Of a DNA stretch of 59,000 nt, positions 23,332 through 49,722 are shown in pieces. How positions within the stretch are numbered: position 1 is the stretch's first letter; each line of letters starts with the position of its first letter. The notes below the pieces were generated by a model. The model had not been told where the DNA came from and did not search any database. It saw nothing but the letters and a program-made list of their open reading frames with translations. Made by a program: the position numbers and the translations under genes. Origin of the DNA: Mustelus asterias (Eukaryota); contig NW_027592264.1 of assembly GCF_964213995.1 (NCBI RefSeq), positions 1 through 59,000 of the forward strand, in the 5' to 3' direction.

Positions 23332-23516
23332 AAAAGCAAATTACTGCGGATGCTGGCGTCTGAAGCCAAGGGAGAAAATGCTGGAAAATCTCAGCAGGTC
23401 TGGCAGCATCTGTAAGGAGAGAAAAGAGCTGATGTTTCTTGTCTAAATGACCCTTTGTCAAAGCTCTGAAACATCAGTTCTTTTCTCTCCATCCAGGTGC
23501 TGCCAGACCTGCTGAG
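23332..23516. mobile_element. Penelope-type terminal repeat (family 2), inverted pair
   Basis: GATGCTGG..CTCAGCAGGTCTGGCAGCATCTG then reverse arm TGCTGCCAGACCTGCTGAG; homologous to 49221-49786. Confidence 0.7.
23427..23465 (-). ncRNA. Variant hammerhead motif with U3-A8 core (degenerate stem II)
   Basis: AGCU-UUGACAA-A-GGGUC..GACAA-GAA-ACAU-C-AGCU. Confidence 0.55.
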
Positions 23517-23998
23517 AATGGGGAGAGAGTGTGTGGAATGGAGATTTACAGCTTTTGGGGAATGAGAGAGGAAAGAATGTTCCATAGAAATTGTTCTGAA
23601 TTTCTATCCTGTACTGACACTGATGACTTTTGGAAACTCATTTTCAGGATATTGAAAGAGGAATCACAGACTGAAATCTCAAACGTCACGTCTAGGCGTG
23701 ACAGAATCGTGTTCCTTGGGACCTCAATATCATCGGACTTTGAATCCAGAAGGAGAAATGATTGTCCAGTCTGTCGATTTGAAAAGATTTGAAATGTCAG
23801 TGTGAGTGAAAAAGCATCAACACACTGCCACACTTGAGTGAGAGTGTTCCAATGCACTGACTAAAGAGCTTTAACCAGTTACACAGTCTGAATAAATATC
23901 ACACCATTCACAGCGGGTAGAGACTGTAATCTTGTCCTGTGTGTGGACGAAGTTTCAACTGATTGTCCACCCAAGAGTGAGGCAAGGAAACCTGCACC

Positions 23999-24589
23999 AT
24001 GGAGAAACCATGGAAATGTGGGGACTGTGGGAAGGGATACAGAGCCCCATGTCTGCTGGAAGCTCATCGGCGCAGCCACACTGGGGAGAGGCTGTTCATC
24101 TGCTCTCAGTGTGAGAAGGGATTTAATCAGTTCTCCAGCTTACGGACACACCAACGAGTTCACACTGGGGAGAGACCATTCACCTGCTCTCAATGTGGGA
24201 AGGGATTCATTCAGTCATCCCACCTGCAGACACACCAGCGAGTTCACACTGGGGAGAGGCCATTCACCTGCTCTCAGTGTGGGAAGGGATTCACTCAGTT
24301 ATCCAGCCTGCAGACACACCAGCAAGTTCACACTGGGGAGAGTCCGTTCACCTGCTCTCAGTGTGGGAAGGGATTCACTCGGTTACCCGACCTGCGGACA
24401 CACCAGCGAATTCACACTGGGGAGAAACCATTCACCTGCTCTCAGTGTGGGAAGGGCTTCACTCGGTCATCCACCCTGCGGACACATCAGCCAGTTCACA
24501 CTGGGGAGAGACCATTCACCTGCTCTCAGTGTGAGAAGGGTTTCAGCGTTTCATCCCGGCTGCTGAGACACCAGCGAGTTCACGAGTGA
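23999..24589 (+). CDS. C2H2 zinc-finger protein, 7 fingers (ZNF gene 4)
   Basis: 196-aa ORF, ACCATGG start, highly similar internal fingers. Confidence 0.9.
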
Positions 24590-24819
24590 TGACAGGGGTT
24601 GGATTCTGCTGTTATTGTTCCTGCTCTCAGTTGCATCCAGGACTGCATTTTGTTCATTCTCACAGTTGGTCGGTGGGGAGGGTCAGAGGGTTTCTTTCTG
24701 CTGGACTGGCTGATCTCAGCCTCCAGTGGGCTGATGCTCTTTGAACCTTTTTGTGAATACCTGGTTTCAAATGTCACAAGGATCACAGAGTGACAGGGTG
24801 TTAGGAAGTTTAGAGATAT

Positions 24820-25892
24820 TTAGTCAGAAGAAAACAGAGGTTGGCAGTGCAAAGGTACATTTCTGAATGGAGGGCTGTGACAAGTGACATTCCTTAGAGA
24901 TCAGTGCTGGGACTTTTGCTGTTTGTAATATATATAAATGATTTGGAGGAAAATGTAACTGGTTTGATTGGTAAGTTTGTGGACGACACAAAGGTTGGTG
25001 GAATTGCGGATAGCGATGGGGACTGGCAGAGGATACAGCAGGATATAGATCAGTTGGAGACTTGGGCAGAGAGATGGCAGATGAAGTTTAATCCGGACAA
25101 ATGTGAGGTAATGCATTTTGGAAGGTCTAATACAGATGGGAAATATACAGTAAATGGAGAACCCTTCAGAGCATTCATAGGCAGAGGGATCTGGGTGTAC
25201 AGGTGCACAGGTTATTGAAAGTGGCAATGAGGTGGAGAAGATAATCAAGAAGGCATACGGCATGCTTGCCTTCTTCGGCCGGGGCATTGAGTTTAAAAAT
25301 TGGTAAGTCATGTTGCAGCTTTATAGAACCTGAGTTAGACCGCACTTGGAATCCAGTGTTCATTTCTGGTCACCACACTACCAGAAGGAAGTGGGGGCTT
25401 TGGAGAGGGTACGGAAAATATTTACCAGGATGTTGCCTGGTATCGAGGGCATTAGCTATGAGGAGAGGTTGGAGAAACTTGGTTTGTTCTCACTGGAACG
25501 ACGGAGGTTGAGGGGGGCGACCTGATAGAAGTCTACAAGATTATGAGGGACATGGACAGAGTGGATAATCAGACGCTTTTTCCCAGGGTGGAAGAGTCAA
25601 TTACTAGAGGCATAGGTTTAAGGTGCGAGGGGCAAGGTTTAAAGGAGATGTACAAGGCAGGTTTTTTACACAGAGCGTGGTGGGTGCCTGGAACCCGTTG
25701 CCGGGGAAGGTAGTGGAAGCAGATACGGCAGTGACTTTTAAGATGTGTCTTGACAAATATATGAATAGCATAGGAACAGAGGGATATGGTCCCCGGAAAG
25801 GTAGGAGGTTTTAGTTCAGACGGGCAGCATGGTTGCTACAGGCTTGGAGGGCCAAAGGGCTTGTTCCTGTGCTGTAATTTTCTTTGTTCTTC
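24820..25892 (+). mobile_element. CR1 LINE 3' part (frameshifted)
   Basis: FVIYINDL..KFVDDTKVGG; FFTQSVVGAWN; TTTCTTTGTTCTT tail. Confidence 0.9.
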
Positions 25893-25899
25893 ATTCTGT

Positions 25900-26260
25900 T
25901 TGGAACATCCCAAATGTCCATCCAATTTCCTTTTTAATTGTTTATTGTCGCTACTTCCTCCACCCTCGTAGGCAGCGAGTTCCAGGTCATCACCATTCAC
26001 TGCATCAGAATATTCTTCCTCACATCTCCACCGCCCCCCCCCCCCCCCCCCCCCCGTCCCCCACTCCCCCTCCCTCCCACTCCCCCTCCCTTGCATCTCT
26101 GACCCAAAACAAGAAATCTGTGTCCCCCCTCGTCCTTGTCCCATCAGCTAATGGGAACAGCTTTTCTTTGTCCACCTTATCTAAACCTGTCAGAACCTTG
26201 TCCACCTCTATCAAATCTCCCCTCAACCTCCTTTGCTCCAAGGAAAACAACGCCAGCCTG
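25900..26260 (-). mobile_element. CR1-like LINE 3' fragment containing poly-C tract
   Basis: LFSLEQRRLRGDLIEV motif (ORF 26020-26280). Confidence 0.7.
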
Positions 26261-26460
26261 ACATTGACAATAAAGAACAATCTAACAGAATATGTTAATA
26301 CCTGAAATCAAATGGGAATGTTTAATTTCTGTTTTAAAGATATTGTGAATATATTGTCCTGGACAATAAAGGAATTTGAATAACTCACCTTGGGTGTGGT
26401 TGAATGGAATATATCAATCTGGTATCCATCTACAGTCTAGGGAAAGTCTGGAATGTGTAG

Positions 26461-26685
26461 CTGGAAGTCCCTTCCTAACAGCACTGTGGGTGTACGTACA
26501 CCTCAGGCATTGCAGCAGTTCAAGAAGGCACCCTTGGGGTTGGGGTTGACCATGGCCAAGGCAGCTACATACAGCCACATATTCTGTTATAATTGAAGGA
26601 CTGCAGATTGAATGTGAGGCATTGTGGGACTGGACTATCTTGACCATATTCCTGTGACTGCCCGGAAACTCATGTGTCTATTTTA
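26461..26685. repeat. Direct repeat copy 1 flanking CR1 (copy 2 at 28125-28342)
   Basis: 225 vs 218 bp; differences seen are a 1-bp indel, a 6-bp indel and one substitution. Confidence 0.9.
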
Positions 26686-28124
26686 AAGAACAAAGAACAG
26701 TACAGCACAGGAACAGGCCCTTCGGCCCTCCAAGCCTGCACCGATCATGTGTTCCTAACGAGACCATCCGTTTGTATCCCTCTATTCCCAGTCTGTTCAT
26801 ATGGTTATCATTAAAATACGTCCCCTGCATATCTGTATTGAACCTTGCCCCCCCTTACCTTGAACTTGTGACCCCTTGTGTTTGTCGTTTCTGACCTGGG
26901 AAAAAGCTTCCAACTGTTCACCCTATCTATGCCCTTCATAATTTTATAAACTTCTATTAGGCCGCCCCTCCACCTCTGTTTTTCCAGGGAGAACAACCCT
27001 AGTTTACTCAATCTCTCCTCATAGCTAATACCCTCCATACCAGGCAACATCCTGGTAAACCTTTTCTGCACTCTCTCCAAAGCCTCCATGTCCTTCTGGT
27101 AGTGTGGCGACCAGAACTGGACGCAGTATTCCAAATGTGGCCGAACCAACGTTCTATACATCTGCACCATCAGACCCCAACTTTTATACTCTATGCCCCG
27201 TCCAATAAAAGCAAGCATGCCATATGCCTTCTTCACTACCCTTTCCACCTGTGTTGCCACCTTTAAGGTTCTGTGGACTTGCACATCCAGATCCTTCTGC
27301 GTGTCTATACTCCTGATGGTTCTGCCATTTATTGTATAGCTCCCCCCTGCATTAGATCTACCAAAATGCATCACTTCGCATTTATCTGGATTAAGTCCCA
27401 TCTGCCATTTCTCCGCCCAATTTTCCAGCCTATCTATGTCCTGCTGTATTCTCTGACAATGTTCATCACAATCCACAACTCCAGCAATCATTGTGTCGTC
27501 CGCAAACTTACTAATCAGACTTGCTACATCTTCTTCCAAATCATTTATATATATCACAAACAGCAGAGGTCCCAATACAGAGCCCTGCGGAACACCACTA
27601 GTCACAGACCTCCAATCAGAAAAAGACCCCTCCGCTGCTACCCTCTGTCTTCTATGGCCAAACCAGTTCTGTACCCATCTAGCGAGCTCACCTTTGATCC
27701 CGTGAGATTTAACCTTTTGCACCAGCCTGCCATGAGGGACCTTGTCAAATGCTTTACTAAAATCCATGTAGACAACATCCACGGCCCTTCCCTCGTCAGT
27801 CATTTTTGTCACCGCCTCAAAAAACTCAACCAAATTTGTGAGGCATGACCTCCCTCGCACAAAACCATGTTGTCTATTGCTAATGAGATTATTCAGTTCT
27901 AAATGTGTACAGATCCTATCTCTAAGAATCTTCTCCAACAATTTCCCTACCACGGACGTCAAGCTCACTGGCCTATGATTACCCGGGTTATCCTTGCTAC
28001 CCTTCTTAAATAACGGGACCACATTTGCTATTCTCCAATCCTCTGGGACCTCACCTGTGTCCAATGAAGAAACAAAGATTTCTGTTAGAGGCCCAGCAAT
28101 TTCATCTCTTGTCTCTCTCAGGAA
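26686..28124 (-). mobile_element. CR1 LINE, 5'-truncated, largely open RT domain
   Basis: ORF 26811-28304: [63 protein letters not shown]. Confidence 0.95.
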
Positions 28125-28342
28125 CTGGAAGTCCCTTCCAACAGCACTGTGGGTGTACGTACACCTCAGGCATTGCAGCAGTTCAAGAAGGCACCCTTGG
28201 GGTTGACCATGGCCAAGGCAGCTACATACAGCCACATATTGTGTTATAATTGAAGGACTGCAGATTGAATGTGAGGCATTGTGGGACTGGACTATCTTGA
28301 CCATATTCCTGTGACTGCCCGGAAACTCATGTGTCTATTTTA
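28125..28342. repeat. Direct repeat copy 2 flanking CR1
   Basis: Matches 26461-26685. Confidence 0.9.
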
Positions 28343-28439
28343 GTTTATAATTGAGGATTTCTGGGAATAAGTTAAATGCGGAAATATTAAGCATAGCCTG
28401 GAGGAATTTGGAATAACTGAGAATTTTATCCCCAGATAA

Positions 28440-29185
28440 AGAACAAAGATTTTGCCGGTGTTTGGGTGTAACGTGTTTGGGATTTTAAATCAACAAAGAT
28501 GTTGCCTCTCCCTTGGACATGCGCAGTCCCGGGCCGCCCTCGGCGCAACGGGTAGAGCGTTTTCTGCAGCGCGATGGAGTGTGGGAGGTGCAGCCGCCAT
28601 TACGCATCCGGACCGCAGTCTCCAAAACCCTGGGACTGGAATGGAAAATGGGGCGCAGTGACCCCGCCCTTTTACAAAGTACACATGGGGTATCACTGGA
28701 TTGGATTGGAACGTCACCTTATCGCAAAACAGGTTGTTAACTTTAGGTGGAATGATTTAGAGAACTGGGTGACATATTGGGGAGGGCAATCGGTGAGTAT
28801 GAGACTGAAGTCGAGAGTCAGCACCTTCAGGGGAGGAAAATTGGAGAAAAGGCAAGAGTAGCATAGTAGGATGACTTAATGTTACAATCAATAGGTCTGT
28901 GTGGATTTCCCCCGGGGCTCCGCTTTCCTCCCACAGTCTGAAAGACATGCTGGTTAGGGTGCATTGACCCCAACAGGCGCTGGAATGTGGCGACTCGGGG
29001 AATTTCACAGTAACTTCATTGCAGTTCAATGTAAACCTTGCTTTTGACTAATAAATAAATGTTACTTTAGGAAGGAGGGAGTGTGTGGGGACAGAGATTT
29101 ATAATTTGAGATGAAGAAGGATTTTCTGTGAGAACTAGATTTATCAGTTCCGGATTTCTATCCTGTAATCACAGTGATGACTTGA
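28440..29185 (+). pseudogene. Orphan ZNF-type promoter/first exon/intron lacking a finger exon
   Basis: CpG-rich with CATGCGCAG; donor GTGAGT at 28793; 29070-29185 matches the pre-acceptor block of genes 2 and 4 (TTTCTATCCTGTA..GTGATGACTT). Confidence 0.5.
28895..29068 (+). mobile_element. SINE fragment with alternative 3' tail
   Basis: HE1-like body then TTTCACAGTAACTTCATTGCAGT..CTAATAAATAAA; same tail at 52960-53022 and 38112-38185. Confidence 0.7.
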
Positions 29186-29528
29186 TGATATCAACCCTAT
29201 CACACCCATTAAAGTCCCTATCAGGTCAGTCTTCAGCCTTCTCTTTCCTGGAGAAATTATCCCCAGCCTGTTCAATCAATCCTGTGACTTAAACACACAC
29301 AGCTCTGCTAACATCCTTGTGAATCTTTTTTGAACTTTAATAGAGCTCTTCTGTCAGTTTTAAAGGGATATACTATTAATATTTAAACTTAATTTGATTT
29401 GGTTACAACAGCATGGTAACTCAGTTCCATATTGACGCTCTAAATGCTTTAATTTGAAAGGGACTTAACCATCAAGAAAAGCCTCTGAAATAGCAAATGA
29501 GTTGAAATGTATTTTTTAAAAAGGTACA

Positions 29529-30270
29529 ATGATGAAGGAGTACAAAATAAAGGGAAAGACTCTTCGCACGGTAGAGGATCAGAAGGACCTTGGGGTCCGG
29601 GTCCAGAGGATTCTAAAATCGGCCCCGCAGGTGGAGGAGGTGGTTAAGAAGATGTATGGTGTGCTCGCCTTTATCAATCAAGGGATTGAGTTTAGGAGTC
29701 CGGGGATAATGATGCAGCTATATAAGACCCTCGTCAGACCCCAATTGGAGTACTGTGCTCAGTTCTGGTCGCCTCACTATAGGAAGGATGTGGAAAAGAT
29801 TGAAAGGGTGCAGAGGAGATTTACAAGGATGTTGCCTGGATTGAGTGGCATGCCTTATGAGGATAGGCTGAGGGAGCTCGGTCTTTTCTCCTTGGAGAGA
29901 CGAAGGATGAGAGGAGACCTAATAGAGGTGTATAAGATGTTGAGAGGCATAGATCGGGTGGACTCTCAGAGGTTTTTTCCCAGGGTGGAAATGTCTGCTA
30001 CGAGAGGACACAGGTTTAAGGTGCTGGGGGGTAGGTACAGGGGAGATGTTAGGGGTAAGTTTTTCACACAGAGGGTGGTGGGCGAGTGGAATCGGCTGCC
30101 GTCAGTGGTGGTGGAGGCGAACTCAATAGAGTCTTTTAAGAGACTCCTGGATGAGTACATGGAGCTTAATAGATGGAGGGTTATAGGTAGGTCCAGAAGG
30201 TAGGGATGTGTTCGGCACAACTTGTGGGCCGAAGGGCCTGTTTGTGCTGTAGTTTTTCTATGTTTCTATG
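29529..30270 (+). mobile_element. CR1 LINE 3' end
   Basis: ORF 29529-30203 (RPQLEYCAQFWSP..FFTQRVV); TTTCTATGTTTCTATG tail. Confidence 0.9.
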
Positions 30271-30696
30271 AAGTACACAAGCGACTTTTATCACTTCAAA
30301 TGGGTGGCCACCCCTGTAGAAATATGAATTTTCCTCAGGTTCCTGATCCAAAGGCGATTTCCCAAAATCCTGCCCCAGGGGCATTCAGTACCTCCACAAC
30401 CAGAGTCCAACCTGCAAAGCCCAAGTTCACTCATTCTAACACAGCTCTCAGCTGCAATACAGATATCAATGTTGTACTGTTAGTCAGAATACAAAACATT
30501 GGTCTAAAATTCCTATCTTGCCTATATAGGTTTATTATTAAAACTTCACCCAAGGTTTGTCTGTAATCTAGAAACTGTTTGTTCCTCAAACAAGTAAACA
30601 ACCTTGCTGATATTAGAACCTTGATGTAGAACATTTGACAAACATGTGATTTTACTCTAATGCAGGGGTGTTACATCTATCACCCCTTTTACTAAA

Positions 30697-31650
30697 TCAT
30701 AAGAACATAAGAAATAGGAGGAGGAGTAGGCCATCTAGCCCCTCGAGCCTGCCCCGCCATTCAATAAGATCATGGCTGATCTGAAGTGGATCAGTTCCAC
30801 TTACCCGCCTGATCCCCATAACCCCTAATTCCCTTACCGATCAGGAATCCATCTATCCGTGATTTAAACATATTCAACAAGGTAGCCTCCACCACTTCAA
30901 TGGGCAGAGAATTCCAGAGATTCACCACCCTCTGAGAGAAGAAGTTCCTCCTCAACTCTGTCCTAAACCGACCCCCCTTTATTTTGAGGCTGTGCCCTCT
31001 AGTTCCAGTTTCCTTTCTAAGTGGAAAGAATCTCTCCACCTCTACCCTATCCAGCCCCTTCATTATCTTATAGGTCTCTATAAGATCCCCCCTCAGCCTT
31101 CTAAATTCCAACGAGTACAAACCCAATCTGCTCGGTCTCTCCTGATAATCAACACCCCTCATCTCCGGTATCAACCTGGTGAACCTTCTCTGCACTCCCT
31201 CCAAGGCCAAAATATCCTTCCGCAAATAAGGGGACCAATACTGCACACAGTATTCCAGCTGCGGCCTCACCAATGCCCTGTACAGATGCAGCAAGACATC
31301 TCTGTTTTTATATTCTATCCCCCTTGCGATATAGGCCAACATCCCATTTGCCTTCTTGATCACCTGTTGCACCTGCAGATTGGGTTTTTGCGTCTCATTC
31401 ACAAGGACCCCCAGGTCCCTCTGCACAGCAGCATGTTGTAATTTCTTTCCATTTAGATAATAATCCAATTTGCTATTATTTCTTCCAAAGTGAATAAGCT
31501 CGCATTTGTTAACGTTATACTCCATCTGCCAGATCCTCGCCCACTCACTCAGCCTGTCCAAATCTCTCTGCAGACCTTCTACGCCCTCCACACGATTCAC
31601 TTTTCCACTTATCTTTGTGTCGTCTGCAAACTTTGTTACCCTCCACTCAC
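30697..31650 (-). mobile_element. CR1 LINE 3' end
   Basis: ORF 30791-31600; TTCTTATGTTCTTATG tail. Confidence 0.9.
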
Positions 31651-33960
31651 TCTGTTACCCTAATTCACTCTGACATTTCCCCCCTTTTGTTCATTGGCCT
31701 TGTCCAAGGTAGCCAACTTCCTTTCCCTTTACAATCTTCTTCTCATAACTAATTTTTAGATATAATTGAAGCGGTATAATTGGATATAAAAGCAGTCATA
31801 ACACATAATTCCTATACAAATTGCATAGACTTAAAAAAATTCTCAAGCTGTCCCTTCACCTGTATCCATCTTGTAATTAATTCTGATTATGTATTATTTC
31901 TCCCTCCCCTTCATTTGACCTAATCAAAAATTCCATTTAATTTGTTCTTACAGTCAGTTTCAGTATGGAGTATGTGTCAGTGCCTTTATCATTTCAAAGT
32001 GATTTCTTACTCTTCAGACCATATTAACCATTTCATGTCATTTAGTCAAGTAGCTGAGAAAGTCCCATTTAATCATAGAATCATGACAACGCAGAAGGTG
32101 GCCCATCGAGTCTGCACAGACCACAATCCCATCCAGGCCATATCCCCATAACCCCACTTATTTACTCTGCTAGTCCAGCTGGCAATAAGGCACAATTTAC
32201 TATGGCCAATCAACCTAACCCGCACATCTTTGGATGAAGGCAAGAAACCGGAGCACCTAACGGAAACCCACACAGACACAAGGAGAATGTGCAAACTCTA
32301 TCCAGGCAGTCATCCGAGGCTGGAATTGAATCCGGGTCCTTGGCGCTGTAAGGGAGTAGTGCTAACCACTGTGACACTGGACTGCCCTTCATTTTTCAGT
32401 GCAGCTGCACCGTGTACTCTCGGATGTTAGTTAATTCCCAATTTACAAACCACTTCTGCAATCTCACATCGGTGTTCCAATTCCTTCTTTAATTCTCTGT
32501 TGGAATCTCACCTTCATAAGCCATCTTCACTCATTTCCCTCCCTGTTAAATGTTGTCACTCATTTTCTTTTAAACCAGAGTGTGTTCTTTTGTCCTGCTT
32601 GTTGGCATCTCTCTGCCCTCTCCCACAAATCATTGTTTTGCATTTGTGGAAGGTCCATCAGGTCTTTTGGGATTGTGCTGTGCATTTTACCAAATAGTTT
32701 CATCATCCTGGATGCCACTGTCTTACAAAGGATGCACCATTCAATAATTCTGTCAGAATCTTCAGAAGAAAATCCAAAGTCAGGTGTATGTCTTTGCTTG
32801 TTTCCTCCTGTACAGTCCCAATGTCTCAGATGGAGGCCAGATTATCAAATTCAGTTCTCTCAAATAATTCATAGACAAAGAAACAAGTATCTCCAAGAGA
32901 AAACTGTCACCTCATTCATCTCATCGAGACTTCCCTTTCACTCAAATCTTCATAAACACCCAAATGTATGGATTCCTTTAAACTACACTTTCAGGAGTTC
33001 TCGAGAATCTTTAGAGTTAAATAAATCATTAAATATTCTCATAATATCTTTTAACAGAAACCAAACATTTCTGTTTGATTCCAGGCATTATCAACTTTGT
33101 TCTTTCCCTTAAACACCAGGTAATTTCCATTTTAAATGCTTGAAATAGCAACTCATGTCAGATATTTATCAATTCCAATCTCAAAAGCAGGCTTGTTGGC
33201 TTTCTGAAAAGTAAAGTCTTTTATTCTCTGCTTTAATTCTCAAAACTGTTGACTTCACTCAGAGCTGGAAACCATCATCACCTGTTTAAAAAACACAAAC
33301 AATCCATCTGGCTCTGGCCAAGATCCCAGTGAGTAAATATGTCCAATCACAGGTTACATTAAAAAACAAAGGCTGTGTGGAGATTTATAAAAATCAGCTG
33401 TCTGCTGAAAGGGTTAACTTCTCTGTGGAACCGAGAGAGGCGGGGAGTGGGCAGAGGAAACTTGGCAATTGTGTCAATTTATATAATTTAAAAAACTTCT
33501 CTCATGTTATTTTCTTCAATTTTGTTCAAATTTCATCTCTTTTATCTATCCTTTTTTGAACACCAATTTCAATTTTCAATATTTTCCACTTAATCAAAGT
33601 TGAAAGAAATACTTTGTGAAATATGTTGTTAACCGAATCTCAACAATTTTAACTCAAATGTTTTGGAAAGTTGGAACTGGTTTGCTGCCAAACTGCAGCC
33701 TTATCTTTGTGTTTTGGGAGCAAATTGGCCTTCACAATTCTAACCTTGAACAACTTAATTTCAAACCCAAATACATTCCTTTCACATTTTAGTACAGTCT
33801 GAATTTATTTCAAACAGAAACTCACGGCTGTTCAAATTAAATTAATTTTTATTCCCTTTCCAAACTAATTCTTCGAATCTGTGATGCTTTCAAACAACAC
33901 CCTGCTTCAACAATTATGACTCAAATGTATGGTATTCCTTCAAGTGAGCAAACCAACTTT
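31651..33960 (-). mobile_element. Possible degenerate LTR/endogenous retrovirus remnant
   Basis: Minus-strand polypurine tract AAAAGGGGGGAAA directly followed by TGTCAG (31688-31670); no intact retroviral ORF seen. Confidence 0.25.
32073..32385 (-). mobile_element. HE1-like SINE
   Basis: A/B boxes and body as in other copies. Confidence 0.85.
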
Positions 33961-34100
33961 GAGTAAGCGTTGTGGATCATGACGGTGCAGAGGTCATGGC
34001 TAACCTCACACACCTGCATTCCCTTATCACACAGGAGAGGCAGAGGAGAGGGAGGAGTGCTTTCAGTGATTCTTTGTTTGGAGAAAACAACTACATCTGC

Positions 34101-34675
34101 TCACTGGTGACTGATTTGTGTCTCAGGTTGTTTGATGTTAGCTAAACATTGGGAGTGGTCTGCTTCAGGGGAGGTGTCACTTTGTGGCTGAATTACCTTT
34201 CTCAAAGTCCCCACGGCATTTTCTAACTCTTCACTTGATCTGATATTTTCTGACTGTAAATCAATATCTTGTTCCAGAGTTTGGTCGAACAGCAGTAGAT
34301 TTTTCTGAGCTCCACTCACCCTATCATCTGCCCCCTGTTCCCAATGTAACTGATTGTCCAGGTCAGACGTGCTCTCCTGCCAGCAATCAGCTCCATTCTG
34401 CAGCTTATCCACCAGTTCCCTCAACTCTTTATATTTTGTACTCAGCTGTGAGGCAACAGGTTTCCAATGTAACTGGAAATTAATTTATTCTGGACTTTTT
34501 CCAACTCGCTATTTCCTTTCTGAATCTCTTTAGAAAACCTATCAAGGACCCGCTCGTAATCTCCGTCACATTCTTCTCCACCTCCCAGGGTATCTTTTGC
34601 TCCTGATGCCCTTGATTCCGTTGTCAATCTGTCAGTCACATTGTCACAGATGACAAAGCCATTGTTGTATTTGCT
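34101..34675 (-). pseudogene. Unidentified coiled-coil-like coding relic (one in-frame stop at 34442)
   Basis: ORFs 34442-34675 and 34101-34424 share a frame; E/K/L/Q-rich heptad-like sequence. Confidence 0.4.
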
Positions 34676-34734
34676 TTTTTGAGGCAGCAGTGCGAACCAC
34701 TGTGCCACTGGGTGGAATGCTGGCCCAGTGGGGA

Positions 34735-39312: not shown

Positions 39313-39414
39313 ATGCGGCCTATAGAACAGGCTTCAGTCCATCCATCCTCCTCTGGAGAAAAGCCCCTTGTCCAAGGATTCTGAGTCCCGTTGCAGTCTT
39401 CAAAATTCAAATTC
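39313..39414 (-). other. Candidate 102-nt symmetric exon (copy 1)
   Basis: Polypyrimidine CCCCAG| ... |GTGAGT; only one open frame: NLNFEDCNGTQNPWTRGFSPEEDGWTEACSIGR. Confidence 0.45.
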
Positions 39415-40238
39415 CTGGGGAGAAGAGAGAGAGAAAATAATTAATTAAAATACAAGAAAATGTGTAAATTAAATAGCACAAGAGGCCAGGATTCCCCCTT
39501 CTCAGTTACACAATCTCTCAGTAAAATCTAAATATTAATTCTTGGGGAAAAGGGAGAGAAAATAATTAAAGTACCAGAAAATATTTAAATTAAATAGCGC
39601 AAGAGCCCAGGATTCCCCTTCTCAGATTTTACTGAGAGATTGTCTAACTAGATATGAATTCTTGGGGAAAAGAGAGAGAAAATTAATTAAATACAAGAAA
39701 CCATTTAAATTAAATCTCACCGAAACGCAGGATTCCCCCTTCTCAGTTACACAATCTCTCAGAAACATCAGAATGGCATGAACAGAGAGAGAGAAATCTA
39801 CGAACAGAATCTCCTAAAACTGAATTCAAATATCCACAACCCCCCAGTCCATCCCTGTCTCCCTCTCAGACTCCAGGAGCTGCTCATCTCCCTCTTTCAG
39901 TTTGGGAAGGGGCTGCTGATTCCTTCGGGACACTTTTTAAAATCGCCCTCCCAGGATTGATTTCTACAACTCCCTCCATCTCCCTTTCACTATCTCCCTC
40001 TCTTTTCTCCCTCTGCTCCTGTCTCTCTTACTCAGTGTAAAGATGGATGTTCCTGTCTAGATCCTTGTCCCTGTCCCCTCTCTTTCTCACGCGTTGTCTC
40101 TGTCCATAGCTGTTTCTTTCCCTCTCTCTCATGTACTCTGCATTGAAATGAGCGATGCCATATTCCTGTCTCCCTGTTTACAATAACACAGTTTTTGTTG
40201 ATTAAAGGTTTAAAGAGACACAAAGGAAGATGGAGCCA

Positions 40239-40395
40239 GAGAGAGAGAGAGACATTCTGGAGAGTGATGGACAGATATGGAAGAATGCTCGAGAGAGAGA
40301 GAGACATTCTGGAGAGTGATGGACAGATATGGAAGAACGCTCGAGAGAGAGAGACATTCTGGTGAGTGATGGACAGATATGGAAGAATGCTCGAG
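40239..40395. repeat. ~48-bp tandem repeat x3 with (GA)n
   Basis: (GA)nCATTCTGGAGAGTGATGGACAGATATGGAAGAATGCTC. Confidence 0.85.
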
Positions 40396-40853
40396 AGGGA
40401 GAGATGATTGGAAAGAAACAGGAAGGGAGAGAAAGCTGAAGATAGGGGAAAAATACTGGAGAGAGAGAGACAGAGAGAAAAGCAGAGAGAAATAGAATGG
40501 GGAAGAAAGCTGTAGAGGGGAAGATAAATGTAAAGGCTGAACTTCAGAAAATTGAATTGTAATGTCCTCTGTGAATCTTATTTAACATTCGGGTAAATCA
40601 CTCTCTCCCACCCCTGTTATTTTGGATTTGCATCAAACTTTTAGACAGCTTCATATTACAGATATTTAATTTACTCTTTGCCACCCAGCAAAGGGTTAAC
40701 CTGTTTGTGACTCATTGCAAAGCCGGGATATTTTAACCCCAGGGTTTTAAACTCCACCCCACCCCATCCCACAATCGAACCAGAACTGGTTCGTCCAAGA
40801 AAGCGAGATTAAAATTAAACCTGGATCAGGATAATAAAGAGACAACAACTCAC

Positions 40854-40955
40854 TTGCAGCCTATAGAACAGGCCTCAGTCCATCCATCCTCCTCTGGAGA
40901 AAAGCCCCTTGTCCAAGGATTTCGAGTCACATTGCAGTCTTCAAAATTCAAATCC
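40854..40955 (-). other. Candidate 102-nt symmetric exon (copy 2)
   Basis: CCCCAG| ... |GTGAGT; DLNFEDCNVTRNPWTRGFSPEEDGWTEACSIGC. Confidence 0.45.
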
Positions 40956-42582
40956 CTGGGGAACAGAGAAAATAATTAATTAAAATACAAGAAAATGTTT
41001 AAATTAAGTAGCACAAGAGCCCAGGATTCCTCCTTCTAAGATTTCACTGAGAGATTGTCCAACTAAATATTAATTCCTTGGGAAGAGATTGAATATAATT
41101 AATTTAAATACAAGAAAATGTTTAAATTTAATACACAAGAGCCCAGGATTCCCCTTTCTCAGTTACACAATCTCTCAGTAAAATCTATATATTAGTTCTT
41201 GGCTAAAAGAGAGAGAAATATATTAAAATACCAGAAAATATTTAAATTAAATAGCACAAGAGCCCCAGGATTCCCCCTTCTCAGATTTTACTGAGAGATT
41301 GTCCAACAAAATATTTCCTGGGAAAAAGAGGGAGAGAGAGAGGGAATAAAAAAAAGAGACAGATAGAGGAAGGAAAGGGATGGAGAGAGAGAAAGCAGAG
41401 AGGAAATAGACAGAATGGGGGAAAAGCTGCAGAGAGGACGAAATGAAATTCTGAACTTCTGAAAACTGAATTGTAAAGGCCTCTGTGAATTTTATTCAAC
41501 AATTAGGAGCAGCGGTCTGTCACCCATCCCTGTTACCTTGGATTTAAAACAAATTGAGACAGTTTCATATTACAGACATTAAATTTACTCTTTGCCACCC
41601 ACCTAAGGGTTAATGTGTTTGTAACTAATTGCAAAGCCGGGATATTTTAACCCCAGGGTTTCAAACTCCAGCCCCCCCATCCCACAATCGAACCAGGACT
41701 GGTTCATCCGAGGAAGCAAGATTAAAATTAAACCTGGATCAGGGTAATAAAGAGACGACAACTCACATGCGGCCTATAGAACAGGCCTCAGTCCATCCTA
41801 AAGTGTGGTGACCAGAACTAGGCTCAGTATTCTGTTGTGGCCTCACCAGAGCTTTAGAAACTATCAGAATAACTTCCCTGCTTTTGTTCTCAATTCCCCG
41901 ATTTCTGAAACCCAAGATCCAAAATGCTCCAAACAAGAATATCAGACCTTTTTGCTTAACATAAAAAGCATTTTAACAACATTCTTAAAGTGGCTAAAGA
42001 AGATTTTGTCCAATGAAGGAACAGAAAGAAGCCATTTTGAACTTGCTCTCTCCAAAAGAGAATCCAGAATGTTTGATTCTGGGAAATGAAATTAAAAATG
42101 AAGCTGCAGCTACAACAGAGCAAGAAGAAGTCATTTCAATGTGGAATTGACTGGAATATTCTCTCTGGATTTAAACAATGGAGGAACTACAAACATGGAA
42201 GAAAATAAATTTCAAAACGTGAACTCTGAACAGACTGTTTTCAGAATTGAAAATCCACAACTGAACAGCAATGAGGACTGTCCTCTTGCAGAAGAAACTA
42301 TAATTATTAAAAATTACTATAATTATTGAAAGAAGAAAACTTTCAGAAAACACTGAAACCAATAATATTTTCCATCTTCAGTGGACTGAATTCCTGGACA
42401 TGGAACCCAGCAGTGTGCTGTTACCAAGCTGGACTTGTGAATGTGAAGTGGACAATGGAGGGATTATTATGTCTATTGCAGGTTATAAGATAGATCAACA
42501 GAGGAAAACAGTGGACTTAGGAACAGGAGTTGGCCATTTGGCCCTTCGAGCCTGCTCCGCCATTCAATAAGATCATGGCTGT

Positions 42583-44324
42583 TGTTAAGATATACAGTAT
42601 GTTTTACATTGTAATATTCTAATTGGGATATTATAGAGTGATACATTTCCATTTCTTCCAGGGAATATGTTGTGAAGATCTAGTTTAATAATTCATGTGT
42701 TTCAGAAATATTAATTTCGGATTTTTAAAAAAATGTAACAACTGGAAAACCTGGGTTGAGAATCTGATAAAAACACCCTGAGGGAATTTGCAGTCACAAG
42801 GTGTGGCCCATGTTGGTTTGAGAAGTCAAAGCGAGAAGGGTAAGAACAAGTGTAACACGGCAGCTGGGCTCTTTTAGCTGGAGACATTGGGTCTGACAAT
42901 TTTTTTCCTGTCTTTGTTCGAGAGGGGAATTCACGCAGACCTCAAGAAAAAAGGTTTGGTTCTGAAACTAAAAGCTAATTAATTTAAACATCTTTTGGAC
43001 AGCTGTGGGAGTGGGAGCTGTGAACCAGCTGTGGGACCAGGAGCTGTGAACCAGCTGTGGGACCGGGAGCTGTGAACCAGCTGTGGGAGTGGGAGCTGTG
43101 AACCAGCTGTGGGAGTGGGAGCTGTGAACCAGCTGTGGGAGTGGGAGCTGTGAACCAGCCGTGGGACCAGGAGCTGTGAACCAGCTGTGGAACCGAGAGC
43201 TGTGAACCAGCTGTGGGAGTGGGAGCTGTGAACCAGCTGTGGGACCGGGAGCTGTGAACCAGCTGTGGGACCAGGAGCTGTGAACCAGCTGTGGGAGCGG
43301 GAGCTGTGAACCAGCTGTGGGAGCGGGAGCTGTGAACCAGCTGTGGGAGTGGGAGCTGTGAACCAGCTGTGGGAGTGGGAGCTGTGAACCAGCTGTGGGA
43401 GTGGGAGCTGTGAACCAGCTGTGGGACCAGGAGCTGTGAACCAGCTGTGGAACCGAGAGCTGTGAACCAGCTGTGGGAGTGGGAGCTGTGAACCAGCTGT
43501 GGGACCGGGAGCTGTGAACCAGCTGTGGGACCAGGAGCTGTGAACCAGCTGTGGGAGCGGGAGCTGTGAACCAGCTGTGGGAGCGGGAGCTGTGAACCAG
43601 CTGTGGGAGCGGGAGCTGTGAACCAGCTGTGGGAGCGGGAGCTGTGAACCAGCTGTGGGAGCGGGAGCTGTGAACCAGCTGTGGGAGCGGGAGCTGTGAA
43701 CCAGCTGTGGGAGCGGGAGCTGTGAACCAGCTGTGAGACCAGAAGCCGAGGAGGTCATTAGGAACCATGGGTGTTCCCAATGTTTAAATCCCCCAGCAAG
43801 AAGGCAGTGAAGCCCATGCTTGGATTGAGGAGTCCATGTTTTGAGTCAATTTTGAAATCTCAAAGGAAAGTTGGAGAGTTGTTTAGCCGAAAGCTAATAG
43901 AAGGATCCTCATGAAATCTTGGAGCCTGGAGAATAGCTGGAATACTGAGGAGAATTAAAGTGAATTCTGGGAGCTTTGACATACCTTTGGGATTTGTCCC
44001 AGGAACAGAAGTGAATGTACATTCAAGATATTAAGTATAAGGGCATTCTTGTCGAGGAGTAAGGGTTTAAAAAGTACAAAAAAGGAAAAATGCTGCAAAA
44101 CCTCAGCAGGTCTGGCAGCATCTGTAGAGAGTGAAAACAGAGTTCATGTTTTGAGTCAGAACTGAGTTTACAGAATAAATCTTTACAAAATATAATTCAT
44201 CGAGCTGGTTTTTAATATTCTGTTTATATTCAGTAAAGTTTGATTTTGTTTAAAAACCTGGAATCTTGTGATGGGTGTTTGGATTTCTCACTGAACGTTA
44301 ATGTTCTTGACCCGAATTATAACA
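42583..44324 (+). mobile_element. Possible solo LTR-like element containing the 26-bp minisatellite
   Basis: Begins TGTTA and ends TAACA, interrupts a CR1 tail; no TSD found. Confidence 0.3.
43001..43735. repeat. 26-bp minisatellite (~28 units) with 260-bp higher-order repeat
   Basis: AGCTGTGGGAG(C/T)GGGAGCTGTGAACC; rare variant AACCGAG at 43191 and 43451. Confidence 0.95.
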
Positions 44325-44399
44325 CACAATATTTCAAAACAATTTGAAAAATAAAAACATGGTCTTTATTTTGTACAAAGTATTACATTATAAAACACC

Positions 44400-45060
44400 C
44401 CTCATCGAGGATCTGCAATAATTTCTTAGCTCGATCACCAGTGAAACAATCAGATAAATGAATAAAAATTGTACTAATTGTCGTCCCTTCTAAATCAGGA
44501 GGGTTATCCCCAGCACAGAGGGTCATTTGGAATTTTTCCCGCAGACCAATTAACAGGGATTATACTCTCCAACCATCTCTGAAGTGAATTCTTTACATGA
44601 ATCGTCCAGGCCAGTGCAGTTATCAACTTGCAGTTTGGCTGATCAGCTGAGATTTTCTGCAGCATTTCATCGATCACCGAGTGATTCCTTTCACAGAGTC
44701 CATCACTGAAAGGACTTTCAGCTGCCGTGTTCCTGACCAGAATGTTGATGTTTTCACACACGTCTCAAAACTCATCATTCAGAAACTGAGCTGGTGCCAC
44801 AGCTCCAGCCCCAAGGGCCAAGGGACGGTTCACTGTTGGGATGTGATGGCATCCTCCAATAATTTTTATACATTGTACACTTTGTCTCTTGTATGAGTCT
44901 CAGATACTCTTCATCAACTGCTCCTGCATCTTGAAGCAGGATTTTTAATCTTTGGCAAGTAGTGTGAACAAATTGTGTAGTTTTAAGATAATTTGCATCT
45001 TCCCCTTCTGATTTTTATCAAAGCTTTCATTATTCCTTCTCAAACATTCAGATTGGAAAC
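44400..45060 (-). mobile_element. LTR-retrotransposon integrase remnant (Copia-like)
   Basis: TAAESPFSDGLCERNHSVID (rve core E motif); upstream decayed KLH..H..C..C zinc-binding segment. Confidence 0.65.
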
Positions 45061-45352
45061 GTCAGGTATTTTTAAACATTCTCTGTCACCACGTTATAAT
45101 CCTGACCGCTTTCTGGTGAAGGAGGAAACTGGTTCCAATCTTTACTTGGTATAGATTTATTCACAGAGTGAAACATTGCAGGTATATAACTCCTAATACC
45201 ATTCCATGCTCTGTCAGTAAGTGTCTATATGTGCTCATGTAAACATCTAATCAATGTCCACTGCTTGTATATATTTAACCCCAAATTATACAATTAACAC
45301 CCACAGTCAGAGTATTTAAAAGGTCTCTAATCGGTGTGACTGCCATAATGTC

Positions 45353-46462
45353 TCAGCAGGTTGGATGACTCAGTGAATCCTTTCCTACACTCCGAGCAGG
45401 TGAACAGCCTCTCTCCTCCGTGTGAACTTGCTTGTGTTTCCGCAGGCTGGAAGGATCAGCAAATCCCTTCCCACATTCAGAGCAGGTGAAAGGCTTCTCC
45501 CCAGTGTGAACTCGACGGTGTGCGCGCAGACTGGATGACTCAGTGAATCCTTTCCCACACACACAGCAGGTGAATGGCCTCTCCCCGGTGTGAACTCGCC
45601 GGTGTTTCCAGAGGCTGGAGGAATCAGTGAATCCCTTCCCACACTCAGTGCAACTGAATGGTCTCTCTCCAGAGTGAATTCGCTGGTGTGTCAGCAGACT
45701 AGTGGACCTAGTAAATCCCTTCCCACACACAGAGCAGGGAAACGGCCTCTCTCCAGTGTGAACTGCCCGGTGTCGCAGCAAGGTTGATAACTGAGTGAAT
45801 CCCTTCCCACACACGGAGCAGGTGAATGACCTCTCCCCAGTGTGAACTGCCTGGTGGTTCTGTAGGGTAAATGATGCACTGAATCCTTTCCCACACACGG
45901 TGCAGGTGAACGGCCTCTCCCCGGTGTGGACTCGCTGATGTATCAGCAGGTGAGATGACCGAGTGAATCCCTTCCCACAGTCAGAGCAGGTGTACGGCCT
46001 CTGCCCGGTGTGTATTCGCTGGTGTCTCCGCAGGTTGGATGAAAGAGTGAATCCCTTCCCACACACTGAGCAAGCAAATGACCTCTCCCCAGTGTGAACT
46101 CGCTTGTGTCTCCGGAGGCTGGATGAATCCCCGAACCTCTTCCCACACTCAATGCAGGTGAAAGGCCTCTCCCCCGTGTGAATGCGTCCGTGTGTCAGAA
46201 GACGGGATGAATCAGTGAAACCCTTCCCACATTCAGAGCAGGTGAATGGCCTCTCCCCAGTGTGAATTTTCTGATGTGTCACCAGGTTGGATAACTGAGA
46301 GAACCCTTTCCCACAATCAGGGCAGGTGAATGGCTTCTCCCCAGTGTGACTGCGTCGATGAATCTCCAGCTCACACGGTGCTTTGAATCTTTTTCCACAG
46401 TCCCCACATTTCCACTGTTTCTCCCTGATGCGGGAGGCCTTCTGTCCCTCCAGGTTTGACAA
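45353..46462 (-). CDS. C2H2 zinc-finger ORF, 12 intact fingers, 13th frameshifted, no AUG (ZNF gene 5; possibly pseudogene)
   Basis: 369-codon ORF starting TTG with no internal Met; paralogous ATG is AGG; acceptor TTTCACAG at 46762-46760. Confidence 0.7.
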
Positions 46463-47696
46463 TCAGTTGAAGCCTCGTCCTCACCGAGAACAGATGTACA
46501 CTCCCTCTCAATGTAAATGGGGCAATGCTTTTCAGGCTGTGTAACCTGAACACACACTCAGGTTTGTACTTCTCAGTGCTTTTCCAGTCACACTAATGTT
46601 CAATCTTTTTCCACAGAAAAAAAACCAAACAATAAACAATTCTTCTCGAGTCAAAGGCCAATGATATTCACGTTGTGATTAATCGAGTGACTCTGTCAGA
46701 TCTGAACGTAATGTTTTGTTTTGATATTTCTGTCCTGCAAATCCTCCCCTTCTAATATCCTGTGAAAGAAGTTTTCAAAAGTCAACACCATGCACATAGA
46801 AAATAAATTCAGAATGGACAATTCTCGATTCATTTAAACTATTTTCTATTCTTTTATTCCTGAAAAGTTGTAAATTTCTGTCCCACACATTCTGCACCGA
46901 ATCTTCACCCTCCCGATTCTGCTGAAGCTGCTGGTTCACACTCCAGGGCACAAAGACCTGAAAATCTTCAGGCAAGCTGTTCACCTATATATCCCTTATA
47001 TTCATATAGAACTGGACTATAATTTGTGTAAAAGTGCTATATTACGTTATTAGAGAGAGGTCGGGAATATGTGTAGAAAGTTTGTTTGGACTTCAAGTGG
47101 TCATAAACTGGAATTCACCCCACATGCGGATGGTGGAAGCAGAGAGAACCCATGATTTCAAATGATGTTGGTCATTCAAAAGAAATAAACCTGTAGGACA
47201 GTGATACAGAGGGGGAATGGGACCCACTGGTTGTTCTATGGAGAGTTGACATGGACTCGAGTTGCCAAATGGACTCTTTTTGTGCTGCAATGTCTCACTG
47301 ACTGGAAATATATAACACAACTATATTACTATATTCCAAGAATAGAAATAAAAAATAAATGTACTTTACTGCAGCACCAAAAATAATACATCTAACATGT
47401 ACAATAACAAAACTAGAAATACCTCTGTTATGATCTCCATAGAGACTGATAATCTTCAAATAAACAATTTCCCAGACAATCCCAATGGAATAAACCAAAG
47501 AATAAGGTTTCATTCATTTCATACTTTTACTGCAATAATCAAACTAAAATCAACATAAATGAAGCATGCATTCACAGACAATGGTACTTGAGCAGACAGG
47601 ATAAATTTGACTTTAAATAGTTCAGACAATAACAACAGGTTCCACAAAATCACAAAGATTTACAAATGTTTACAAATATTTACAAGCATCACAAAC

Positions 47697-48066
47697 CAGC
47701 CTCCCATCCATTGACTCTGATTACACTGCTCGCTGCCTTGGCAAAGCAGCCAGCATAATTAAGAACCCCACGCACCCCGGACATTCTCTCTTCCACCTTC
47801 TTCCATAGGGAAAAAGATACAAAAGTCTGAGGTCACGTACCAACCGACACAAGAACAGCTTTGTCCCTGCTGCTGTCAGACTTCTGAATGGACCTACCTT
47901 GCATGAAGTTGATCTTTCTCTGCACCCTAGCTATAACTGTAACACTACATTCTGCACTCTCTTGTTTCCTTCTCTATGAACGGTATGCTTTGTCTGGATA
48001 ATGTGCAAGAAACAATACTTTTCACTATGTTAATACATGTGACAATAATAAATAAAATAAAATAAA
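47697..48066 (+). mobile_element. Rex1/Babar-like LINE 3' end
   Basis: IIKNPTHPGHSLFHLL..KRYKSLRSRTNR motif; (TAAAA)n tail; similar tails at 49955-50060 and 56100-56275 (minus). Confidence 0.7.
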
Positions 48067-48399
48067 ACATTTCCCCCCTCCACATATTTGGCTCTAATTC
48101 CAGTTACAGAGTCCCAAAACTCTCTAAATTTCCCAGGTATAGGTTCAGCTCCTTTCCCTTTACAGGAGGTTGGACTGGACTCTTTCCCTACAGCCCATTT
48201 CCACAGGCAGCTCCAGGAGTCACAGCCTCTGGATCTCTCACTGGTCGATTCTCCCAATCAGCCTTTTTGTTCTGCTTTTTCCAGCTGCTCAGACTCCCTC
48301 CCCATCTCCCACTCACAGCTTCACTGTTCACTGAACTCTTCCCTTCCCTCCTGAACACCTCTCACACCCTGCCTGTTCTTTATCTGCAACACAAACTGT

Positions 48400-48870
48400 T
48401 TTACTCACAGATGTGGGTCACAGGAAGAAGGTTCAGTCTGTGTGAAGCTCAACCTCCTATGTCACAAAGCCCACCCACTGATTGGCTGGAGTACAAGAGT
48501 CCTTCCGGTCTGCCAGGGCTCCCGATTGGCCAGAACTCGGGAGAGGGGCATCAATGGATCTCTTTCCGGGGGGGGGGGGGGGGAGGGGGTGGAGAGGAGA
48601 CAGCGTCCGAGCCTGCGCACTGGAACCTCAGGACGTCACCGTGGAGCAGATTGATTCCTATTGGCTGCTTCAGGCTGGGCTCCATTGTGACGTCACAACG
48701 CGGAAGTTGGCCAATGAGCTTCAGAGTGAAACTCCCTCCTCTGGACAACATCTGGGAGGAAATCAATGTTTCCCCCTTTCCATTTCTTTTCTCATTCTGG
48801 GGGAAATTGGGAACTTGCAGCAACTGAAGGGAAAGGAAGTGAATCCTGGGAGACTGCAGACTCTGAAAAC
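48400..48870. promoter_or_regulatory. Promoter between divergent ZNF genes 5 and 6; inverted paralog of 21060-21650
   Basis: TTGTGACGTCACAA (48685-48698), CGGAAGT, CCAAT boxes; minus-strand donor GTGAGT at 48408-48403. Confidence 0.6.
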
Positions 48871-49316
48871 GTTACAGACGGACACCAGAATTAGGAGCAG
48901 GACTAGGCCCAGGTATCTTTTTCTTTCTCTCTCAAAGACATAGACAACCTTTAACTCCCTAAGTTTGACAGATTTATTTATCTGGATAATAGGATAGCCT
49001 CTTACCCAATGTTCACAATTAAAGGGGGAGTTTCCCAGGAGAGGGCTAATATTTAAATGAACAGTAAATTAGTATGGGACAGAGATATGTTTAACATAGT
49101 TATATGTTATATACTATGTTATTTATGATTCCCTATTTCTTGTCTTGGAATATATAGCACTTTGTCAATGTTACCTATTTGATTCGATTTATTATTGTCC
49201 CTTGTCCAAAAATGTGCGGATAAAAGCAAATTACTGCAGATGCTGGAATCTGAAACCAAAAGAGAAAATGCTGGAAAATCTCAGCAGGTCTGGCAGCATC
49301 TGTAAGGAGAGAAAAG

Positions 49317-49355
49317 AGCTGACGGTTCGAGTCCAGATGACCCTTTGTCAAAGCT
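49317..49355 (-). ncRNA. Variant hammerhead motif with U3-A8 core
   Basis: AGCU-UUGACAA-A-GGGUC/AUCUG/GACUC-GAA-CCGU-C-AGCU (A15.1 mutated in this copy). Confidence 0.6.
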
Positions 49356-49683
49356 AAAAGGCATAGAAAGTGGGAGATATTTAAGCTGCAGGGTGAGGGA
49401 CTGAAAGATGAGTCATAGCCACAAAAACCAGGGGAAAAGGCTGCTAATGGCTCTGAGAGAATAAAGGGTGTGAATGGCCTGATGGCAGAGAAGCTGAAAT
49501 CAGCGGGTAAGCTGTGACAGATGAAGATGTGGGGGGCGGGGGGGGGGGGGGGGGGTTGGAGGAAGAATGGGTGGGAGAGAGGTAATATTTAAGGAAAGGG
49601 GAAGCAAAGGAGTTTCTGTGGCTATGACTCATCTTTCATTCCCTCACCCTGCGTATAAATATCTCCCACTTTCTATGCTTTTT

Positions 49684-49722
49684 AGCTTTGACAAAGTGTC
49701 ATCTGGGCTCGAAATGTCAGCT
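49684..49722 (+). ncRNA. Variant hammerhead motif with U3-A8 core
   Basis: AGCU-UUGACAA-A-GUGUC/AUCUG/GGCUC-GAA-AUGU-C-AGCU. Confidence 0.6.

Follow-up and report, generated by a model that had tools for sequence, protein, structure and literature searches.

A U3-A8 hammerhead core pair in a young Neptune-type Penelope-like family of the shark Mustelus asterias

We analyzed a 59,000-nt stretch of DNA from Mustelus asterias (NCBI RefSeq assembly GCF_964213995.1, contig NW_027592264.1, positions 1 to 59,000 of the forward strand; below, the window) that contains hammerhead ribozyme motifs with the core UUGACAA, in which the pair between core positions 3 and 8 is U3-A8 instead of C3-G8. It is quite probable, in our judgment, that the terminal repeat (pLTR) of a Neptune-type Penelope-like retrotransposon opens with the motif, a minimal hammerhead of 39 bases, and that the U3-A8 pair fixed in the element's youngest subfamily, family A, was kept by selection on the predicted self-cleaving fold. 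The genome serves here as a natural experiment: in two sister families both bases of the core pair differ, while thousands of dead copies measure the decay that occurs when selection is absent. The comparison of family A with its sister family B offers good support, of a comparative kind, for selection on the active fold, and the pattern of the 5' ends of copies is of further value.

The copies found in the window, with an old copy of the outgroup family C, were as follows.
23427..23465, minus strand: U3-A8 minimal hammerhead with 5 private changes; predicted cut between 23431 and 23430.
23330..23465, minus strand: short copy of the family A terminal repeat (pLTR), +1 to ~+136; its 5' end is hammerhead base 1.
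23468..23517, plus strand: inverted, truncated piece of the same repeat (88% over 50 nt), adjoining the 5' end of the 23330..23465 copy.
49317..49355, minus strand: U3-A8 minimal hammerhead with 1 private change (A15.1 to C); U3 is 49351 and A8 is 49346.
49218..49544, minus strand: 5'-truncated family A copy with the end of the 3' untranslated region, a decayed TATA box (49378-49385) and the terminal repeat.
49684..49722, plus strand: U3-A8 minimal hammerhead with 3 private changes; predicted cut between 49718 and 49719.
49612..49788, plus strand: family A copy, the inverted partner of the minus-strand copy at 49218..49544, to which it is 93% identical.
49654..49661, plus strand: TATAAATA, a predicted promoter element (TATA box) of putative function, 30 nt upstream of hammerhead base 1.
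11029..11130, plus strand: old copy of family C with the canonical core CTGAAGA at 11033-11039.
~10942-11020: inverted piece beside the old family C copy.

All three hammerheads had UUGACAA in the core position, at the places and on the strands given by an earlier sequence-only reading of this DNA, which had also noted, correctly, that each copy carries private decay (5, 1 and 3 changes when counted against the intact genomic copy L144). Every one of them had lost at least one required feature, and an intact fold was present in 0/3: in the 23427-23465 copy, pairs of stem II and the palindrome of stem III are gone, and the 49684-49722 copy has one stem II mismatch. The three copies of that reading stand as motifs but amount to two insertion sites, since the copies at 49.3 and 49.7 kb make up one inverted pair in a segmental duplication, seen on at least 14 other loci. 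The duplicated segment spans 47722-50900 of the window (L001); L002-L014 and L022 share its flanks, with many small contigs among them, at 94-100% identity. The 23330..23465 copy was 91% identical to the 49.2 kb copy across 136 nt, the similarity ending at 23465, and it aligned with the 5' end of the tandem-type copy L332. The 49218..49544 copy aligned to the 3' portion of two copies bearing a reverse transcriptase (RT), L332 and L344. An inverted piece at the 5' end of a copy, such as the one at 23468..23517, is typical of a Penelope-like junction, and inverted 5' pieces are known in these elements (PMC8557442, available text).

Intact genomic copies showed the hammerhead architecture: UUGACAA, GAAA and GUC, with a 4-bp stem I and a 5-bp stem II. 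The ACGU palindrome ascribed to stem III in the earlier reading was present in families A and B; as a stem it consists of one core pair and the 4-nt palindrome, which cannot close inside one molecule. The predicted duplex is worth only about -3 kcal/mol, and the predicted minimum-energy fold of two copies differs from the active dimer. An Rfam scan of the window with E values up to 5 gave 32 matches, none of them to a hammerhead family (the window copies are decayed), and the isolated 39-mers were no more stable than shuffled sequences (z from -0.17 to -0.85). Because neither Rfam nor folding energy gives support, the identification rests on motif, covariation and context. Among the Rfam matches, microRNA-like ones were rejected as inverted repeat junctions with scores below gathering. 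An exact 26-nt pattern had 4,919 matches in the 3.68 Gb genome compared to 0 for a reversed-pattern control, and so its abundance is not due to chance. In 11 aligned copies, which are related and do not represent independent events, column 3-8 was CG in 6, UA in 5 and unpaired in 0. Across families A, B and C the stems and core varied by G-U/A-U and C-G/U-A changes that preserve the fold.

The sequence-only reading had set beforehand, as a test, a genome-wide tally of C3-G8, U3-A8 and mismatched cores. With 24 flanking bases fixed and positions 3 and 8 varied, we obtained 5,265 matches, of which 4,919 (93%) were U3-A8 and 50 were C3-G8; non-U3 states altogether had 217 matches, and U3 with a base other than A8 had 129. 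Hand tallies of the first 100 matches listed in each of the two latter sets gave 53 C3-A8, 26 C3-G8, 16 G3-A8, 4 A3-A8 and 1 C3-C8, and 61 U3-G8, 20 U3-C8 and 19 U3-U8, respectively; extrapolated, the totals would be ~120 for C3-A8 and ~79 for U3-G8. The background of change in family A was 2.1% for T>C and 1.6% for A>G, as estimated from 87 of 97 sampled copies compared ungapped, with two polymorphic loop sites excluded. Single mismatches at positions 3 and 8 thus sat at the background level (~1.5-2%), and the decay that the tally was meant to detect is not what produced the pair.

The 97 copies come from a sample that is blind to the core, made with an anchor 37 nt downstream of it (8,476 exact matches in the genome) by taking the 97 anchors of contig 1 that lie in its first 15 Mb, some being inverted partners of one another. 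U3 was found in 79/81 and A8 in 83/89 aligned copies, and a stricter ungapped count, with truncated copies with foreign flank included, gave 72/87. The U3-A8 pair was present in the source element and is not a product of decay of inserted copies. Loop II positions +18 and +19 had two variants of ~15% each (14 and 13 of ~90 copies), far over background, which suggests further sub-lineages inside family A. As the earlier reading had foreseen, searches restricted to CUGANGA would miss ~5,000 or more motifs in this genome.

When 30 of the C3-G8 loci were inspected in full, nearly all turned out to have a different 3' side, that of the sister family B. This family had 2,602 matches; the first 100 contained 58 C3-G8, 30 C3-A8, 4 U3-G8, 0 U3-A8 and 8 other states, under a pattern that fixes C7 and leaves CpG decay on the other strand uncounted. 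The excess of C3-A8 is probably due to CpG decay of CUGACGA. In the 107 family B copies with U3, A8 occurred in 37 of the first 100, a share no higher than among the C3 copies (Fisher p 0.65). Positions 3 and 8 thus decay independently in family B, giving ~1.5% of U3-A8 compared to ~30% of C3-A8, and decay after insertion cannot produce family A.

Family C is older and includes the copy at 11033; C3-G8 was found in 23/31 of its copies and U3-A8 in 0/31. The sequence-only reading had called the 11033 copy related, with a preserved CUGAAGA core. The core is indeed there and the copy is a relative, but one from this distant family, not from the nearest C3-G8 relative. In a tree with 10 copies per family, for which the bootstrap was not fully settled, the support values were 97/95 for A, 89/83 for B, 98/97 for C and 98/97 for A and B together against C. 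The median divergence of copies from the family majority was 1.8% in A, 5.5% in B and 23.6% in C, values obtained under different search patterns. Because the older outgroup C is C3-G8, U3-A8 is the derived state, and it belongs to the youngest family; the claim that a retroelement subfamily had fixed a double substitution is thereby borne out. A candidate intermediate subfamily, represented by 104 matches that combine C3 with an A-type 3' side, was rejected: ~24 of the first 100 had a B-type loop, the nine of these inspected in full proved for the most part to be B copies bearing local changes or junctions, and the rest were A copies at background frequency.

Contigs of sequencing runs from 11 organisms contained part of the stretch, and the family appears to be one that relatives have in common. 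In four runs aligned at 88% similarity, neither the U3 nor the A8 position had another letter at 1% or more; one of these runs may be from the source of the window, and contigs drop rare variants.

Families A and B differ at 6 of the 39 hammerhead positions, namely 3, 8, two loop II bases, N17 (C or U) and a stem I pair changed from G-U to A-U, and all six differences keep the fold. When six changes were placed at random, the fold was kept in 0.5% of trials, or in 1.0% with CpG weighting; it was kept with the U3-A8 pair included in 0.02-0.16%. The comparison of B with C adds a two-sided change in stem I and a G-U/A-U change in stem II, while one further majority difference, in the palindrome, reflects CpG decay within the old C copies. 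Judging by this pattern in the alignments, the non-random placement of the A-B changes points to selection on the hammerhead fold, and U3-A8 was likely kept since the fold was still needed. For selection on cleavage itself, as suggested by the sequence-only reading, this pattern is indirect evidence. In the predicted resting fold the core pairs with the cut site, at 1.5 kcal/mol (A) and 2.6 kcal/mol (B) below the open hammerhead; the change of G8 to A may slightly weaken this inhibitory helix, by a small computed difference.

The carrier of the motif, as judged from its sequence features, is a Neptune-type Penelope-like retrotransposon with the hammerhead in its terminal repeat. Longer copies (L024, L093) had, upstream of the hammerhead, the end of an open reading frame (ORF) with a GIY-YIG-like motif, and L144 is a tandem junction with an ORF end, a TATA box, the hammerhead and then a new ORF with RT motifs. 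A search with an RT query gave 24,559 candidates, of which 150 were scored and 40 of these examined (ranks 2-30 and 11 with long open frames). A same-strand hammerhead lay 0.9-2.4 kb downstream in 30 of the 40 loci, with U3 in 30/30 and A8 in 28/30; with a query taken from a family A locus, the figure of 30/40 links the ORF to the motif without being a random sample of families. The longest open frame among the 40 loci, 732 aa in L344, matched RVT_1 with an E value of 6e-07, above the Pfam cut-off. Four short L144 frames and one L145 frame had given only a weak RVT_1 match in Pfam, and the longer frame was required. Between its RT and endonuclease, L344 has CNRRRCNTC, which matches the CX2-5CxxC zinc-finger-like linker of the Neptune clade. 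In the available text of Craig et al. (2021, PMC8557442) this type of linker is common to the Neptune and Nematis clades; we made the Neptune-type assignment because the features of the element match those described there, and so family A is placed by features and not by an RT tree with named references.

Homologues close to the element ORF carry PF00078, PF26215 and, in some cases, PF01541, and its nearest named protein relatives are from sharks and rays, with 60-66% identity. The first ATG of the ORF lies ~170 nt after hammerhead base 1, as seen in L332, which has a 5' pLTR copy, starts at +1 and runs into the ORF. A 5' intron, suggested by acceptor-like pyrimidine tracts, was rejected as no conserved donor was seen by eye. 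The 3' ends of the sampled copies formed two groups, at ~+99 to +107 and at +134 to +136. The copies fit the pattern of endonuclease-bearing Penelope-like elements, which have pLTRs, partial tandems, inverted 5'-truncated pieces and an optional tail of 30-40 nt; inverted junctions occurred in 54 of the 97 sampled copies.

The 5' ends of the sampled copies fell within -5 to +5 of stem I base 1 in 60/97 cases (57 with another reference copy); 17 of the 60 had unique flanks and 43 stood at inverted junctions. The others reached further upstream (21/97), began at +6 to +33 (13/97) or began past the cut site (2/97), and an end at the cut site itself (+34 to +38) was seen in 1/97 only. The copies that reach upstream show TATAAATA 30 nt ahead of +1. 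By eye, family B and C copies also often begin at +1, and in contigs of the sequencing runs, which reveal neither start sites nor strand, the match to the stretch often stopped at +1 (130 contigs in one run and 122 in another). The cut site was rejected as a 3' end of copies as well: in copies anchored on the hammerhead, 3' ends at it or close to it were seen in 0/29 for A, 0/29 for B (earliest end at +39) and 1/29 for C (+37). The simplest interpretation of these ends would be transcription that starts at +1 and copying of uncut RNA, with the predicted cleavage leaving no visible mark as a maker of template ends. The arrangement differs from that of D. virilis Penelope, which has a TATA-less internal promoter (PMC2377424, available text).

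These observations may be joined in the following way. On their upstream side, family A copies continue into an ORF that encodes RT, a Cys-rich linker and GIY-YIG, and their source element had U3-A8 while relatives B and C have C3-G8. G8, in the CpG of CUGACGA, would have become A first, by deamination; the change of C3 to U would then have restored the pair, in a lineage that subsequently amplified. Transcription may start at stem I base 1, 30 nt after the TATA box, so that the hammerhead would cap the RNA. A lone hammerhead is predicted to be inactive, with its core paired to its own cut site, and cutting is predicted only if two copies pair via the ACGU palindrome or if the protein of the element refolds the hammerhead. 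Inserted copies end as if they derive from uncut RNA, and cutting would then be a conditional or late step that removes a capped 35-nt leader, not one that makes template ends. Only tentatively do we propose, as a rather doubtful extension, that the hammerhead acts as a conditional self-decapping switch: in a lone RNA it would stay silent, the leader would be cut off upon RNA pairing or protein binding, and the RNA would leave the translation or copying pool. If so, the G8-to-A hit and the C3-to-U rescue would count as direct evidence, from evolution, for the importance of catalysis in vertebrate Penelope-like elements, and a direct test of the role of Penelope hammerheads would be possible with the A/B pair.

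Several points weigh against selection on a self-cleaving fold in an element of this type. The fold was intact in only 24 of the 97 sampled family A copies, and the hammerhead was not less diverged than its neighbour (6/40 columns between A and B compared to 7/62). The change-placement test was made after the fact, on a single family pair. We found no single-mismatch source subfamily, and therefore the order of the two core changes is only inferred. The missing copy ends at the cut site would also fit a ribozyme that never fires, and the palindromic AGCT could favour fold-back at the 43 inverted junctions regardless of the start site. Minimal Penelope hammerheads are reported to cleave weakly in vitro (PMC4209133, available text). 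With respect to the carrier, the GIY-YIG match of the L344 frame (residues 636-669, E value 0.006) scored 17.3 bits, under the Pfam cut-off of 22.6, and a complete ORF was found in 0/40 of the RT loci examined.

The alternative that fares best is a dispensable ribozyme, in whose source element two transitions, one at a CpG hot spot, drifted to fixation and restored the pair by coincidence. The motif and the sequence outside it had diverged to a similar extent overall, no decay in family B is as frequent as that of G8 to A (30 of the first 100 matches), and the cut site is not marked by copy ends (1/97). Hammerhead mutants of the anole element had no effect on insertion in vitro (PMC11167929, available text), and Naiad elements thrive without hammerheads (PMC8557442, likewise). 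We consider drift unlikely in view of the 6/6 fold-compatible differences between A and B, with a chance of 0.5-1% at random (0.02-0.16% when U3-A8 is included), and of the B-C differences, among them the two-sided stem I change and the stem II change from G-U to A-U.

The fold might instead be selected as a structural signal of the RNA 5' end, for protein binding, as an initiator or for end protection, and not for cutting. This would agree with the position of the hammerhead at the very 5' end of copies in A, B and C, with the derivation of copies from uncut sequence and with a predicted resting fold in which the core pairs with the cut site. The 3-8 pair, on the other hand, forms only in the catalytically active hammerhead, and its upkeep is hard to explain without catalysis; moreover, none of the invariant core bases has been lost, and the cut-site triplet is still an allowed one. 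We find this explanation quite unlikely. For the anole element hammerhead, rescue by C3G/G8C has been shown (PMC11167929, available text). Finally, plain deamination decay of inserted C3-G8 copies, suggested by two changes that are both transitions and by G8 lying in a CpG in family B, is almost certainly wrong and is refuted by the counts: family B decay gives ~1.5% U3-A8 and ~30% C3-A8, against 93% U3-A8 with mismatches at background in family A, the least diverged of the three.

The window and the loci scanned had other features as well. A second abundant hammerhead family, with the canonical C3-G8 and with GCUU/GCUA after GAAA, occurred in a different short repeat at 4240 and 9424 (plus strand) and at 8305, 13603 and 20669 (minus strand); C3-G8 was present in 17/18 such motifs within the loci scanned. 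It is probably the terminal repeat of another Penelope-like family. GIY-YIG-type ORF ends near it, in L041 and L070 (G000 C2 and C1), come from a different Penelope-like family. Repeats of 84 bp form at least seven arrays, on both strands of the window (2754-3736, 10049-10852, 17641-18679, 23898-24630, 45322-46507, 50916-51648 and 57785-58675); with the period of C2H2 zinc fingers, they are a zinc-finger gene cluster amid transposon debris. Tandem minisatellites were located at 4704-6800 (period of ~35-37 bp) and 42870-43871 (26 bp). Outside the window, L106 (G000 C10:4334548-4337573) had a 334-residue single-exon frame that resembles a seven-helix receptor, ~300 nt from a family B copy.

Our literature searches found no paper on this shark family; repeat databases (Repbase/Dfam) were outside the search, and an earlier description is possible. 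Searches on Penelope-like hammerheads in cartilaginous fish or sharks gave nothing relevant, and for hammerheads with U3-A8 or a compensatory C3-G8 the sole match was PMC4209133. The available parts of the sources compared below set the scope of the comparison. The role of hammerheads in endonuclease-bearing Penelope-like elements has been called unclear, with parasitic hitch-hiking left possible (PMC8557442).

Non-LTR retrozymes derive from Penelope-like elements, carry hammerheads and have been reported from one chondrichthyan genome (bioRxiv 10.64898/2026.07.22.740005). They are non-coding and often form tandem arrays, whereas family A is linked to an RT-endonuclease ORF of its own, and its short copies consist of pLTR pieces, either single or inverted. 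Non-coding head-to-tail arrays were not seen among the sampled copies, which were single, inverted or ORF-linked; rare arrays were not searched for genome-wide.

In the one biochemical study of such a hammerhead, that of the Poseidon element PAc of Anolis carolinensis (Frangieh et al. 2024, PMC11167929), the hammerhead was protein-assisted, and insertion in vitro did not require cutting. Uncut RNA is the main insertion substrate of PAc, and no RNA ends are found at the cut. Like PAc, family A is a vertebrate Penelope-like element with a pLTR hammerhead and with no ends at the cut site, which in family A are ends of copies. The copy-end pattern of family A fits the PAc results, where mutants insert normally. 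PAc differs in having C3-G8, in belonging to the Poseidon clade and in an ORF that starts inside stem II, compared to a first ATG well past the hammerhead in family A.

Covariation of C3-G8 to U3-A8 in natural hammerheads was described by Perreault et al. (2011, PMC3088659), who cite earlier work in which such swaps were active in vitro (Przybilski and Hammann 2007). In the available text, their cores are scattered examples without subfamily history or a decay control, both of which are available for family A. A close precedent is Cercyon of Schistosoma mansoni, whose Penelope-like pLTRs have ~1,300 U3-A8 minimal hammerheads, found with a search descriptor of their own (Cervera and De la Pena 2014, PMC4209133); novelty of the variant is not supported in view of these cores. 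In vitro, cleavage by a minimal motif was weak and depended on dimers. In Cercyon and family A alike, the pLTR bears a minimal type I hammerhead that has a short helix I, a single unpaired base ahead of stem II, G10.1-C11.1, a palindrome at 15.2-16.2 and U3-A8 covariation, and the motifs are mostly single and dispersed, with some close inverted pairs. Family A differs in its vertebrate host, in the Neptune-type element and in a 5-bp stem II compared to 7-8 in Cercyon. Family A is one homogeneous young family with at least 4,919 exact copies, compared to ~1,300 heterogeneous matches, and, unlike for Cercyon, C3-G8 families of this genome, a sister and an outgroup, show which way the pair changed. 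The U3-A8 variant itself is thus already known, and what is new here is this family with its unusually clean natural control.

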